DNA from: Escherichia coli
GTDB lineage: Bacteria; Pseudomonadota; Gammaproteobacteria; Enterobacterales; Enterobacteriaceae
Strand: one strand, 5' to 3'
Length of the DNA stretch: 64,000 nucleotides
Assembly: GCF_002854065.1 (NCBI RefSeq)
Contig: NZ_CP024147.1
The notes below the pieces were generated by a model. It did not search any database and was not told the DNA's origin. It saw nothing but the letters and a program-made list of their open reading frames with translations. A program made the position numbers and the translations under genes. Shown here piece by piece: positions 39,993 to 46,467 of this stretch. The number at the start of each line of letters is the position of its first letter. The first letter of the stretch is position 1.

Positions 39993-41963
39993 TCAGAACG
40001 TATACTCGACACCTGCCCAGAAATTGCGGCCTTCTTCAATAAACCCTTCACTGTAGGCATATTGGGTATCAAACAGGTTATTGACCGACGCATTGACGCT
40101 GAAGCCATGACCTAAGGTGTAATCGGCTCGAATGTGGGTCACCGCAAAACCGGCGGCTTTTTGTGAACCGTCACTGTTGCTGTAGCTGGAGGAACGCGCC
40201 TCTTCCGACAGCGTTACGCTTAACGGCTCCCACGGTTTGAGAGTCATCCATGCGGTCATTGTCTGCGTTGGCAGATCGGTTATCTTGCCGATGTCTTTGC
40301 GTTTGGCGTCAGCGTGGATCAGGGCGTAGCTCAATCCTACATCCAGTATATTGCTGATTTTCCCCTTAATACCGGCATCCAGACCGCTGTAATCCACCGT
40401 GCCGCTGTTCTGATTTTGAATGGTATCGGCATCGATATTGTGCGAGAGGATGGCATCACTCACCCGGTTATAGTAAACGCTGACCTCAAATCCCCAGTCG
40501 CGCGTGAAGGCACCATTCCAGGTTAAATCCACCCCGCGAGCGCGTTCCGGCTTGAGCTGCGGGTTAACAATCGCTATCTGGTTATACGCAGGTTTGGACG
40601 TGGTATAGCGTTCTTTCAGCGTCGGAAAGCGTGTGCGGTCATAGTACGAAAGCGCCAGCGTGTCTTCATTGACAAAGTGGTATTTCCCCATCACCTGCCA
40701 GTTAAAAGCTGACTGATTGTTGTCGTCATAATGGGTGATGCTGCCATCTTTCTCGTGTTTTTTCGCTTCTACGCTATCGCGCCAGTCATAGCTGATTCCA
40801 GCCACAACATCGACATTATCGGCAGCAGCCCATTGATATTCACTGGCGAGCGACCAGGTACGATCTTCATAGCGATCGTAAGCGGCGTGCGGCGCACCTT
40901 TTTCCCGGTGTACGTCATCTTTCCAGTTAACGGCAAACGACAGCAGATCGTTTTCACGCACATCGGCTGCCAGTTGTAATCCGGCACCGTCGCTGTAATC
41001 GGAATAATGGCTGTAGCTGCCTTTTTTATTTTTCAAATCAGCCTGCGAGTTGTACATCATCAGCGTATTTTCAAAGGTGTCGCGATACAGCCGACTTTTC
41101 AGGGTAAAACGATCGTTTAGTTGGGTCGTTCCCTGATAATAAAAACTTTCTTTGTCATACTCTGGCCACTGCCAGTAGCGTGATTTTTGACCACTATTTC
41201 CGCTGTATGGCGGGTTATCTTTTTCACCATCCTGCTTAATGTAAGTCAGTGTGTATTCATCGTTTTCACGTGGTGTAAATCCGAGCTTCACAATGCCGCG
41301 TTTATCATCAGCCGATGAATTAATCATCTTGCCGTGTTTGCCTGCAATATCATTATTTACACCATGCGGCAGGCCGAGAAAATCCTGCTTTAGCTGACTA
41401 CCGCTGACTTGCAAATACCCCAGTTCGCTGCTGGCGGCAAATGAAGCATGCATATCGTAGGCATTGTCCTGGCTACGGCTCCATCCCTGGCGATATCCCA
41501 GACTTGCTTCCAGAGGTTTTGTTGGCTTCTGGGTGGTGATATTAATGGCTCCGCCCATCTGATTAGGCCCCTGAAGCAGCGACGAATACCCTTTGGAAAC
41601 TTCGACTGCCCCCAGATTGTTGGTCAGAATCCGCGCCAGATCGAGGTTGCCGTCATAGGGAACATAAATGGGCACACCGTCGAAATAGACCGGCACCTGC
41701 CGACTATCAAAGCCACGAACTTTTACCTGTTCTTCGTTGCGGCTGCCTGACTTTTGCAGCACCACGCCGGGGACGACACTTAATGCCTGAGCGACATTCT
41801 GTTTATCCAGGGCCTTCATGGTGGGTTGATCGAGAACGGTGGTCGTCGTCGATGATACCGGACTGGACCATACGGTCAGCGTGTCGCTCTCCTGAGCCGC
41901 TACGGCCTGCTGGGTAAAGGCAAGTGATAATGCTGTGCAGAGATAACGTTTTTTGAGTCTCAT
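39993..41963 (-). CDS. TonB-dependent outer-membrane receptor (656 aa)
   Basis: Signal peptide MRLKKRYLCTALSLAFTQQAVAA from ATG 41961-41963, TonB-box-like DTLTVWS, plug and barrel motifs, C-terminal ...AGVEYTF; last gene of the island operon. Confidence 0.85.
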   Translation of the reverse strand: MRLKKRYLCTALSLAFTQQAVAAQESDTLTVWSSPVSSTTTTVLDQPTMKALDKQNVAQALSVVPGVVLQKSGSRNEEQVKVRGFDSRQVPVYFDGVPIYVPYDGNLDLARILTNNLGAVEVSKGYSSLLQGPNQMGGAINITTQKPTKPLEASLGYRQGWSRSQDNAYDMHASFAASSELGYLQVSGSQLKQDFLGLPHGVNNDIAGKHGKMINSSADDKRGIVKLGFTPRENDEYTLTYIKQDGEKDNPPYSGNSGQKSRYWQWPEYDKESFYYQGTTQLNDRFTLKSRLYRDTFENTLMMYNSQADLKNKKGSYSHYSDYSDGAGLQLAADVRENDLLSFAVNWKDDVHREKGAPHAAYDRYEDRTWSLASEYQWAAADNVDVVAGISYDWRDSVEAKKHEKDGSITHYDDNNQSAFNWQVMGKYHFVNEDTLALSYYDRTRFPTLKERYTTSKPAYNQIAIVNPQLKPERARGVDLTWNGAFTRDWGFEVSVYYNRVSDAILSHNIDADTIQNQNSGTVDYSGLDAGIKGKISNILDVGLSYALIHADAKRKDIGKITDLPTQTMTAWMTLKPWEPLSVTLSEEARSSSYSNSDGSQKAAGFAVTHIRADYTLGHGFSVNASVNNLFDTQYAYSEGFIEEGRNFWAGVEYTF

Positions 41964-41988
41964 AGAATAAATTCCGTTTAACAAAGAA

Positions 41989-42843
41989 TTAAATAGAGGC
42001 TGCGGGTTGCAGACTGACTTTAATGTCAGCCGGTGCCGCGTAATAAGGCGCGGAGGTAATAAAGAGGCGAATGCCGCAGTCGAGGTAATTTTTGAGTGTC
42101 GTCAGATTAATTCCGCCGGTCAGAGCCAGCGTGCAGTGGGGAGCCAGCGACGGCGCTATTTGCGCAATTTCAGTTGCCTGTTGCGGACTAAATTTGTCGA
42201 GCTGAAGTACGTCTGGTTGCGCGCGTAACGCGGCGATTGCCTCTTTCGGCGTGTCGGCTTCAACAACAATTTTCTTCTCGGGTGCGTGGCGACGTAACTG
42301 ATCGATTGCGCCTGACCAGTCCTGATTGTCATGAAGAAAATGGCGGTGGTTGGCAAACAATAATATGGTTTCCGCACATCCGGCACGATGAATCAGTCCT
42401 CCGGCAGCCAGAATTGCCTGCGAGGCCAGTAAGCGGGTGCCCGGAATTGCTTTTCGGGTGCAGGCGATATTGCCATCAGGATAACGTTCACGAAGTAACG
42501 CCAGCATTTGATCGAGATAATCAGAAACACCGCAACTCCACTCCAGCACATTCTGGATTGCCTTCCATCCCTGATGAAGTGCTGCGGCATTACCCTGCGC
42601 ACGGATTAGCCGCTGACCCGCGTTCGCTTGTGAACCGTCGCTGACCGCGTCATCAATAGTTAATCCCAGCGTAGTTAACATCTTACACGCGACAGAAACG
42701 CCGCTGACGCAGCCGCCCTGACGGAGAAAAAACTCTATATAGCCATGCTGGTGTCCAATATTTAATGCTCTCGTGGTCAGGTCACCGCCCTGGATATCTT
42801 CCAGAAGTAACGCGTCGATTTGTGCCTGAGAAAGGAAAATCAT
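41989..42843 (-). CDS. ModD-family protein (quinolinate phosphoribosyltransferase-like fold)
   Basis: 284-aa ORF whose blocks (..EDIQGGDLTTRAL.., ..TRKAIPGTR..ANHRHFL.., ..VVEADT..LQLDKF.., ..LTGGINL..) parallel NadC/ModD architecture; GGAGG 7 nt upstream; ATG overlaps the upstream stop (ATGA). Confidence 0.65.
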   Translation of the reverse strand: MIFLSQAQIDALLLEDIQGGDLTTRALNIGHQHGYIEFFLRQGGCVSGVSVACKMLTTLGLTIDDAVSDGSQANAGQRLIRAQGNAAALHQGWKAIQNVLEWSCGVSDYLDQMLALLRERYPDGNIACTRKAIPGTRLLASQAILAAGGLIHRAGCAETILLFANHRHFLHDNQDWSGAIDQLRRHAPEKKIVVEADTPKEAIAALRAQPDVLQLDKFSPQQATEIAQIAPSLAPHCTLALTGGINLTTLKNYLDCGIRLFITSAPYYAAPADIKVSLQPAASI

Positions 42844-45397: not shown

Positions 45398-46419
45398 TAG
45401 CTCGCCACCAATTTTTGATAGTCGGCGTCACTGAGTGAACAATGCCAGAACAGTTGGGCGTAATGCTGCATGTCACTTTTAAACTGGCGATTGATGGCGG
45501 GATCCAGCCAGGCGTGAAGTCTGCGTAATCCCAGAAGACGGTTGATTCCCGGTGGGGCATCCAGCCAGCCAAAGGGCAAGCCACTTAAAAATAAGATGCG
45601 TTGTTCCGCAACGGCTTTCACGCCATGCCAGAGAGGATCACGACGAATAAAATCTGCAGTAACGGCCTCCTGAACCAGAATAATATCCGGCTGCCAGCGC
45701 AGGAGATTTTCCATGGAAACCTGTGTCAGGCCGTGGCGATCGGCTATTTGCGCGACGTTGTGCAAACCTAATAATTCCGCCGCCTCGGTATGCAACGAAC
45801 CCTTTAAGCCCGTTTCCAGCCCTCGAGGACCGCGCGCAGCATAAAAGCGGAGGTTAGCGGCGGGTGAGGCGGCGAATGCCTGAGCTTCACCAACGAAGCG
45901 GCTGGCGAGATTGGCTTGTTCTGCGGCGCGATGCTCTTCGCCTAACGTTTTGCCAAGCGTTGTTAACTGTTCTGCTGATTGCGCCAGTTTCCCGTTAAGC
46001 AATAACCAGGGTATTTGTGTCTGTTCGCTAACCTGCCGTGCCTGGGAGATCCAGGTTTCATCCGTATTGCCGCAATCAACGACCAAATCGGGATGTAACG
46101 CCATAAGCCCTTCCAGCGAGAGTGTGCTGGCGCGCCCGGCGAGTCGTCCCAGCCTGGGTAACTGGCGAATGTGCTCTGGCAATGGAATTAATGCCTGACG
46201 GGCAAAATCAAAAGAGGAAAAACCGACCATTTTTTCTGGCGCGACAGCCAGCAATAGCAAATCGGCGGGCGCACCTGCGCTGACGATGCGTGTAATGTTT
46301 TGGGCTTCGGGAAGCGTCAGTGAGGCCCAGAATTTGACTGATTGTGCAAAAGAAGGCAGATGATGCAGGAACAACGTCGACGCAAGAATCTGTGTAAACC
46401 TCCGTCTGGTTAGTGACAT
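45397..46419 (-). CDS. periplasmic substrate-binding protein (class III, FecB/BtuF/MolA-like) with twin-arginine-like signal
   Basis: 340-aa ORF; N-terminus MSLTRRRFTQILASTLFLHHLPSFAQS contains T-R-R-R-F; first gene of the island operon. Confidence 0.8.
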   Translation of the reverse strand: MSLTRRRFTQILASTLFLHHLPSFAQSVKFWASLTLPEAQNITRIVSAGAPADLLLLAVAPEKMVGFSSFDFARQALIPLPEHIRQLPRLGRLAGRASTLSLEGLMALHPDLVVDCGNTDETWISQARQVSEQTQIPWLLLNGKLAQSAEQLTTLGKTLGEEHRAAEQANLASRFVGEAQAFAASPAANLRFYAARGPRGLETGLKGSLHTEAAELLGLHNVAQIADRHGLTQVSMENLLRWQPDIILVQEAVTADFIRRDPLWHGVKAVAEQRILFLSGLPFGWLDAPPGINRLLGLRRLHAWLDPAINRQFKSDMQHYAQLFWHCSLSDADYQKLVAS

Positions 46420-46443
46420 AAGTTATATCCTGATAATTAAAAC

Positions 46444-46467
46444 CGCTATATATTTACATATATATCG
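46444..46467. promoter_or_regulatory. ModE-operator-like palindrome CGCTATATA-N6-TATATATCG (TATAT-N7-TATAT)
   Basis: Near-perfect inverted repeat 24-47 bp upstream of the island operon start codon; matches the ModE consensus as recalled (TAYAT-N7-TAYAT / CGnTATATA-N6-TATATAnCG). Confidence 0.4.

Follow-up and report, generated by a model that had tools for sequence, protein, structure and literature searches.

The stretch of DNA analysed here, called the window below, comprises 64,000 nucleotides (nt) of an Escherichia coli chromosome. This report concerns the locus between ymgE (39656-39943, plus strand) and treA (46763-48463, minus strand), where six minus-strand genes of an apparent transport operon lie behind a palindrome that resembles an operator of the regulator ModE. 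From 39600 to 46800 the DNA is 100% identical to that of E. coli strain 100416, a human stool isolate, and the open reading frames (ORFs) agree with the RefSeq calls for this strain. The predicted operator and the genes are, in the order of transcription:

46444-46467, no strand assigned: predicted ModE-type operator CGCTATATA-N6-TATATATCG, a near-perfect inverted repeat (consensus match and conservation)
45397-46419, minus strand: periplasmic binding protein, 340 amino acids (aa), Peripla_BP_2, class III (ORF and family match)
44417-45397, minus strand: FecCD/BtuC-type (type II) ATP-binding cassette (ABC) permease, 326 aa (ORF and family match)
43662-44420, minus strand: ABC ATPase, 252 aa, with a GTG start that overlaps the permease stop (ORF and family match)
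42840-43652, minus strand: class I S-adenosylmethionine (SAM)-dependent methyltransferase-fold protein, 270 aa (family match)
41989-42843, minus strand: ModD, quinolinate phosphoribosyltransferase-like, 284 aa (TIGR01334)
39993-41963, minus strand: TonB-dependent receptor, 656 aa (Plug and barrel domains)

The genes are tightly packed. Read from the sequence, the binding protein and permease genes meet in TAATG with an overlap of one nucleotide at 45397, the permease and ATPase genes overlap in GTGA (44417-44420), and the methyltransferase and modD genes overlap in ATGA (42840-42843). Gaps of 9 nt and 25 nt separate the ATPase gene from the methyltransferase gene and the modD gene from the receptor gene, respectively. 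The arrangement is operon-like, with apparent translational coupling. A preliminary description of this DNA had named six minus-strand genes with the same composition and overlaps, and all six ORFs were indeed found, at 39993-46419.

The upstream palindrome and its conservation

The palindrome (CGCTATATATTTACATATATATCG) spans positions -47 to -24 relative to the first ATG of the operon (46419). The published ModE consensus of E. coli is ATCGNTATATA-N6-TATATANCGAT (PMC545781), and its core, CGNTATATA-N6-TATATANCG, with 18 specified positions over 24 bp, served as the scan pattern. The site at 46444-46467 has no mismatch to this pattern and is the sole zero-mismatch match in the window, for which shuffled sequences give a chance expectation of 0.17 matches per 64 kb even if up to three mismatches are allowed. 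Scored with the same pattern, the K-12 modA site (CGTTATATTGTCGCCTACATAACG, 20-43 nt upstream of the ATG) has two mismatches and the K-12 moaA site (CGCTATATACATGATTACATAGCG, about 175 nt upstream of the ATG) has one. The predicted site of the accessory operon is thus a better fit to the ModE consensus than either of them (0 versus 2 and 1 mismatches). In addition, the distance to the ATG is nearly equal at the accessory operon (-47 to -24) and at modA (-43 to -20). The ModE-operator-like palindrome 24-47 bp upstream of the start codon, to which the preliminary description had drawn attention, therefore matches the core pattern completely.

Two further elements of the presumed control region can be placed relative to the operator:

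46485-46490, minus strand: putative -35-like hexamer TTGACA, 17 nt upstream of the operator (sequence)
46428-46431, minus strand: Shine-Dalgarno-like AGGA, 8 nt upstream of the binding-protein ATG (sequence; CAGGA is kept in the enteric orthologues)

The enteric orthologues have TTGAC or TTGAT at equal spacing from the operator. Because the -35-like hexamer is located 17 nt upstream of the operator, the -10 element must fall in the operator's left arm. The operator would overlap the core promoter, a geometry that points to repression as at modA. A scan for promoters and terminators returned as many sites as are expected by chance and did not call this putative promoter.

The preliminary description had also proposed to search the upstream region for binding sites of the iron regulator Fur. 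A consensus scan of the 343-nt intergenic region gave a best Fur box match of 13/19, which is equalled by about 20% of shuffled sequences, and a scan of all orthologous upstream regions showed no conserved Fur box. The Fur search thus yielded nothing above the level of shuffles, and it is instead the ModE-type site that is the conserved element. A search of 39500-47000 with Rfam models at permissive thresholds (E<=1) gave no match, including to cobalamin and molybdenum cofactor (Moco) riboswitches.

Conservation of the operator was assessed in 35 loci, which had been retrieved by scanning one genome per species with an alignment of binding-protein orthologues. These loci come from Escherichia, Citrobacter, Yokenella, Serratia, Symbiopectobacterium, several 'Enterobacter', Klebsiella indica, Raoultella, Affinibrenneria, Erwinia, and four Shewanella species, and their common gene order is binding protein, permease, ATPase, methyltransferase, (ModD), receptor. 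The binding proteins are down to 50% identical and the upstream DNA is otherwise unalignable. However, a site with at most two mismatches is present 20-320 nt upstream of the binding-protein gene in 33 of the 35 loci, representing more than 10 genera, mostly at -43 to -58. The half-sites are constant and the spacers differ (e.g. TGTAAA, CATAAC, AAATAG, GTAGGT). Only two other sites with up to two mismatches occur in the entire 546,626 nt of these loci.

One of these two additional sites belongs to a Shewanella locus, which contains the element twice. In Shewanella fodinae a second perfect palindrome (CGTTATATAGTTAATTATATATCG, L030 11740-11763) precedes the receptor gene by 16 nt. In this cassette, which is without ModD, the receptor gene appears to be transcribed separately, as it comes after a terminator-like hairpin that follows the methyltransferase gene. 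Since S. fodinae has a copy before each, the ModE-type element is linked to the importer genes as well as to the receptor gene. The cassettes of Shewanella are flanked by unrelated housekeeping genes and have no conserved neighbours, which suggests that the cassette is self-contained.

The encoded proteins and their distant relatives

Among proteins of solved structure, the best relative of the permease is MolB of Haemophilus influenzae (HI1471, 2nq2; 9.1e-65, 222 bits). FhuB, BhuU, HmuU, and BtuC score 170, 167, 162, and 140 bits, respectively. MolB belongs to MolBC-A (HI1470-HI1472), a low-affinity molybdate/tungstate importer that contributes only at high molybdate, and the molB transcript is repressed by molybdate (PMC4031551). 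The respective Haemophilus cluster, HI1469-HI1475, consists of modA-molCBA-modD-salX-cysU, with HI1473 being modD (PMC3928620). The pairing of such an importer with ModD is therefore already present in a characterised system.

The binding protein starts with MSLTRRRFTQ, which represents a twin-arginine signal (TRRRF), and R5 and R6 are invariant in 16 orthologues. Its AlphaFold2 model has a mean predicted local distance difference test (pLDDT) value of 86.8. The best solved relative is 4pag, an uncharacterised protein from Sulfurospirillum, and further related structures are 2etv, 4ovk, and MolA (3psa). MolA ranks second by sequence (5e-8, covering residues 206-287 only) and fifth by fold (template modelling (TM) score 0.67, 21% identity). 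It is the nearest relative of the binding protein with a known ligand, but the relationship is weak. The fold neighbours also include YiuA and heme-binding proteins.

The receptor is composed of a predicted signal peptide, a TonB-box-like DTLTVWS in the translation, a Plug domain (PF07715, residues 39-139), and a barrel domain (PF00593, residues 223-630). It reaches the cut-off of none of the NCBIfam receptor models (siderophore, heme, B12, and copper), and the corresponding NCBIfam models for binding proteins and permeases are also far under their cut-offs. For example, the cobalamin equivalogs BtuB and BtuC reach 80 (cut-off 600) and 233 (cut-off 461), respectively. The public annotations of the binding protein, the methyltransferase, ModD, and the receptor are all generic. 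The binding protein is called 'iron ABC transporter substrate-binding protein', a label that appears to be based solely on family-level similarity.

The methyltransferase is a member of a separate family that is associated with FecCD importers. This family comprises 88 cluster representatives below 1e-30, and full-length homologues are 30-41% identical. Residues W29, Y47, D65, G67, D88, S90, M93, W120, S132, R133, L191, and W256 are invariant, and a methyltransferase gene is present in every intact orthologous cassette. The structure was also considered as a source for assigning the substrate, and this was given up: the model is of high confidence (pLDDT 92.6), but its Foldseek neighbours are only generic small-molecule class I methyltransferases with TM scores of at most 0.64, and the Pfam and NCBIfam matches are generic as well.

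ModD scores 504 bits against TIGR01334 (cut-off 178.85) over residues 2-278 of 284, in agreement with the family that the preliminary description had expected. Against the NadC equivalog TIGR00078 it reaches 134.9 bits, which is under the cut-off of 198.4. Compared with the Mycobacterium tuberculosis quinolinate phosphoribosyltransferase, the TRK and HR motifs, Glu201, Asp222, and the GG loop are kept, and Lys172 and Arg105 are changed to Phe and Lys. A function as quinolinate phosphoribosyltransferase (NadC) was rejected because of the score below the cut-off and the incomplete set of quinolinate-binding residues, and the sequence is compatible with a phosphoribosyltransferase-like enzyme acting on another substrate. 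ModD is missing in three of the four Shewanella loci, in Erwinia, and in two further loci (L023 and L032), of which L023 keeps a remnant of the modD 3' end. Because it is absent from several orthologous cassettes, ModD is regarded as an accessory part. Elsewhere, modD genes are found in Mo contexts: in Geobacter, modDABC follows a ModE site (PMC545781), and another arrangement is nifUSVW-modD (PMC4999443). Two other uses of the name were set aside: the 'modD' of Methanococcus is a different protein, an ATPase, and the 'delta-modD' mutant in a paper on twin-arginine translocation (Tat) in extraintestinal pathogenic E. coli is a misprint for mdoD.

In the protein searches, the methyltransferase and ModD were returned in one 90%-identity protein cluster, and a 386-aa 'binding protein' with a QRPTase domain was found. 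Both are probably mis-called fused ORFs in some assemblies.

More distant cassettes are related to that of the window by 58-59% identity in the permease, 41-43% in the ATPase, 39% in the binding protein, 35-40% in the methyltransferase, and 30% in the receptor. In a metagenome contig with 70% GC (L041, 2662-9584) the order is receptor, binding protein, permease, and a 527-aa fusion of the ATPase and the methyltransferase. This cassette is divergent from an adjacent modE gene (NF007957 at 1e-58), whose product combines a ModE repressor domain with two Mop domains. ModE-like sites are present between modE and the receptor gene, one of them (CGTTATATAGTTGACTATATGTAA) 37 nt before the latter, and none were obtained in shuffles of the locus. 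Two loci with 55% GC (L043 and L044) have the order binding protein, permease, ATPase, methyltransferase, receptor. A ModE-like site (CGTAATATACCATACGATATAGCG) is located in the intergenic region common to the operon and a divergent DUF364 gene. This DUF364/DUF4213 gene ('putative heavy-metal chelation'; L043 5105-6183, L044 2000-3078) is divergent from the orthologous operon in both loci. DUF364 genes recurrently adjoin molybdate and tungstate transporter genes (PMC2954201; bioRxiv 10.1101/2024.03.05.583561), and one member of the family is a SAM-cyclising enzyme (PMC12930334).

In a further contig (L049, 72% GC, 5820-10265) a methyltransferase homologue precedes a gene for a NikR-type regulator and is oriented divergently to a more distant FecCD importer, with GTGTTAC, a NikR half-site, in the intergenic region between them. 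This locus may be a nickel-linked cousin of the system.

Strain variability and distribution

The preliminary description had noted that ycgY occupies this position in K-12 and that the block is strain-variable, and the alignment to MG1655 shows both. The gene order in MG1655 is ymgE-ycgY-treA, with about 620 bp including ycgY in place of the block. The homology to K-12 stops at 40016 and starts again at 46762 (blastn), so that the following features can be delimited:

40017-46761, no strand assigned: strain-variable block in comparison to K-12 MG1655 (blastn of the K-12 region against the window)
39956-39985, no strand assigned: GC-rich terminator-like hairpin between the convergent ymgE and receptor genes (sequence; also in K-12)

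K-12 MG1655 retains the final 24 nt of the receptor gene (39993-40016) and the hairpin (K-12 locus L039 2484-2556). Because of these remains, K-12 looks like a derivative that arose by replacement or deletion, in which the ycgY segment took the place of the cassette, rather than like the ancestral empty site. The whole block is contained in 2139 of 5426 complete E. coli genomes (39%) at 97.7-100% identity. The cassette is thus a common accessory locus of E. coli and no rarity.

Some of the retrieved loci contain decayed copies, namely those of Citrobacter koseri (L035), Pluralibacter gergoviae (L036), Symbiopectobacterium (L034), and L023, with fragmented matches to the binding protein, permease, and ATPase, a disrupted receptor, or only a ModD remnant. 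Shigella is represented by partial binding-protein records. A 2.5-kb contig binned with a metagenome-assembled genome of Collinsella sp., an actinobacterium, encodes proteins with 97% identity to those of the E. coli operon and includes the operator (L002); it is most likely a binning contaminant. Two Affinibrenneria salicis entries on scaffold1 (L021 and L022) have mirror-image coordinates on the 1,075,128-nt scaffold (148827-165849 reversed versus 909280-926302) and identical statistics, and are probably a single locus reported twice. Outside the locus, the window carries further lesions at about 22603-23515, 33239-37032, and 54169-55331: hlyE has a frameshift, an internal stop interrupts a pseudogene beside a cvrA that is annotated as incomplete (C-terminus missing), and IS1B is inserted in an autotransporter gene downstream of dhaR (annotation of L051).

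Proposed molybdenum uptake and known systems

Taken together, we consider it fairly probable that the locus is a molybdate-repressed operon for the acquisition of molybdenum (Mo), or tungsten (W), across both membranes. The preliminary description had preferred Mo/W uptake to a classical ferric-siderophore system. All computational checks suggested there agreed with this preference, and it has gained support from the fit of the site to the ModE consensus, its conservation in 33 of 35 loci, the closeness of the permease to MolB, the modE gene beside the L041 cassette, and the lack of a Fur box or riboswitch in the scans of the upstream region. The genomic context argues in the same direction, because the H. 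influenzae molCBA genes cluster with modD and are repressed by molybdate, because ModD is part of other Mo contexts, and because the ModE-like site of L043 is common to a gene of the DUF364 family, which is linked to mod and tungstate transporters.

According to the proposed mechanism, molybdate-bound ModE would occupy the operator at 46444-46467 when Mo is sufficient, the core promoter would be overlapped, and the operon would be off. Under Mo starvation the operon would be expressed. The TonB-dependent receptor would capture a Mo species at the cell surface and transfer it to the periplasm, where the Tat-exported class III binding protein would pass it to the MolB-like type II permease and the ATPase. 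In the cytoplasm, the protein with the SAM methyltransferase fold would handle the cargo, on which the optional ModD may also act. The gene content, the sequence of the operator and its conservation across genera, the homologies, and the genomic associations are observed; that ModE binds and represses, what is carried, and what the two enzymes do is deduced from them.

Of the possible cargoes, a complex of molybdate or tungstate with a small organic ligand is probable, and the free oxyanion less so. A ligand-bound cargo is favoured because the system combines an energised receptor with two small-molecule enzymes, because the ATPase and the methyltransferase are fused in a distant relative, and because the methyltransferase family is also accompanied by non-Mo regulators. 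The preference of the preliminary description for a metallophore-bound cargo over the free oxyanion is accordingly plausible. A more specific scheme is offered tentatively, and we regard it as possible but rather doubtful: the locus could encode the first TonB-dependent Mo/W pathway, in which carrier-bound Mo, either a 'molybdophore' or a pterin/Moco-like gut compound, is imported and the SAM enzyme at the cytoplasmic face of the importer alters the carrier so that the metal is set free or retained, aided by ModD. To our knowledge, the known Mo importers (ModABC, MolBC-A, and the sulfate system) act only at the inner membrane.

Several points weigh against uptake of Mo through such a repressed operon. 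We know of no need of E. coli for a receptor for molybdate, which passes porins. Between the binding protein and MolA there is only a remote relationship (5e-8 over 80 residues, about 21% identity), and the structure nearest to the binding protein, 4pag, has no known ligand. Methyltransferase homologues are also found beside more distant FecCD importers without a receptor, of which one adjoins a NikR gene and one an AraC gene (L048). Since these homologues accompany other importers, the methyltransferase is a general companion of the FecCD importer class and not Mo-specific. A convincing -10 hexamer was seen neither in the sequence nor in the promoter scan, and the sign of regulation is derived from geometry only, since ModE activates some promoters too. 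In addition, MolBC-A is a low-affinity system, and homology to it does therefore not predict scavenging.

Four other explanations were considered, each of them less probable. It is unlikely, though worth keeping in mind, that the operon is controlled by ModE but that its cargo is not Mo itself, being instead a pterin or Moco-derived molecule for salvage or another metal chelate that is modified by the methyltransferase and ModD. Bulky organic ligands are the usual cargo of TonB-dependent receptors and type II importers, the operon encodes two cytoplasmic small-molecule enzymes, and the occurrence of the methyltransferase family with FecCD importers near NikR (L049) and AraC (L048) suggests that the enzyme acts on an organic moiety and not on Mo. 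However, a demonstrated molybdate/tungstate importer is the closest relative of the inner-membrane part (PMC4031551), ModD also accompanies plain modABC systems (PMC545781, PMC3928620), and the cassette is without a pterin-related gene. Alternatively, ModE might activate the operon, and the system might serve at high molybdate like the low-affinity MolBC-A rather than as a starvation scavenger. ModE does activate moaA and other promoters, and a contribution to uptake only at high molybdate is documented for MolBC-A (PMC4031551). Such a role is nevertheless improbable given that the operator follows a conserved -35-like hexamer by 17 nt and is as far from the ATG as the operator through which modA is repressed, that the H. 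influenzae molB transcript is molybdate-repressed (PMC4031551), and that an energised outer-membrane receptor makes little sense with an abundant substrate.

Hardly more probable is ordinary iron-type uptake of a ferric siderophore, heme, or cobalamin, with a palindrome that is irrelevant to control. The database name of the binding protein, the siderophore and heme receptor subfamilies as top NCBIfam models of the receptor, the matches of permease and ATPase to BtuC, FecCD, FhuB, and heme ATPase models, and the YiuA and heme-binding proteins among the fold neighbours would all agree with it. But all iron, heme, and B12 models remain far under their curated cut-offs, the permease is much nearer to MolB than to FhuB, HmuU, or BtuC, and no cobalamin riboswitch or other Rfam match was obtained. 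Moreover, the best Fur match is at the level reached by shuffles (13/19, about 20%) and not conserved, whereas the conserved upstream element is of the ModE type. Finally, the palindrome could be bound by another regulator or be a mere AT-rich promoter feature with a coincidental link to ModE, as TATATA-rich sequence is common in promoters. We hold this to be very improbable because all 18 specified positions match, the CG-flanked half-sites are kept across genera with a varying spacer, a second copy precedes the S. fodinae receptor gene, and modE adjoins the L041 cassette.

If molybdate-repressed Mo/W acquisition is the correct explanation, the widespread annotation as 'iron transporter' would have to be corrected. 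Being encoded in 39% of the complete E. coli genomes and in Citrobacter, Serratia, relatives of Klebsiella, and Shewanella, the cassette is a testable candidate for passage of Mo through the outer membrane and for the use of carrier-bound Mo. It would also provide a handle on two orphan families, ModD and the FecCD-linked methyltransferase. Molybdoenzymes support anaerobic respiration in the inflamed gut, and via this respiration the system could affect the fitness of pathogenic and commensal strains. The EDL933 tag Z1966, which we take to be a gene of this locus, appears in the literature once, as an uncharacterised down-regulated gene. A published characterisation of the locus was not found in the literature, although Studholme & Pau 2003 may hold an earlier in-silico prediction of the operator.

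Among the known systems, MolBC-A resembles the E. coli operon in combining a type II importer with a class III binding protein, in having modD in its cluster, and in providing with MolB the best solved relative of the permease. In contrast to the E. coli operon, the Haemophilus cluster has not been reported with a TonB-dependent receptor or a methyltransferase, and the canonical ModE-type operator is a feature of the E. coli operon. The binding proteins are only remotely alike (about 21% identity), and MolBC-A has low affinity and acts at high molybdate. With E. coli ModABC/ModE, the operon shares the type of operator and its distance from the first start codon, and repression by molybdate-ModE and a role in Mo supply are presumed for both. 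However, ModABC, a type I importer, works with a class II binding protein and lacks an outer-membrane component, and the homology is limited to the ATPase fold.

The pathways BtuB-BtuFCD, FecA-FecBCDE, and ChuA-ChuTUV have the same architecture of a TonB-dependent receptor, a class III binding protein, and a FecCD-type permease with its ATPase. The E. coli operon differs from them by its ModE-type element in place of a Fur box or B12 riboswitch and by equivalog scores far under the cut-offs. We know of no class I methyltransferase or ModD in BtuB, FecA, or ChuA-type pathways. In the chu system an operon-encoded SAM enzyme likewise processes the imported cargo. The ModD family was first described in the modABCD genes of Rhodobacter capsulatus. 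The ModD of the window is a full-length, high-scoring member of this family and is, like other members, encoded with presumed Mo transport genes, but here it accompanies a TonB-dependent type II pathway and is dispensable for the cassette. From its sequence, the system is thus best described as a MolBC-A/ModD-like importer to which a TonB-dependent receptor and a SAM enzyme of its own have been added, with a predicted canonical ModE operator in control, which is a new combination with respect to the known systems.

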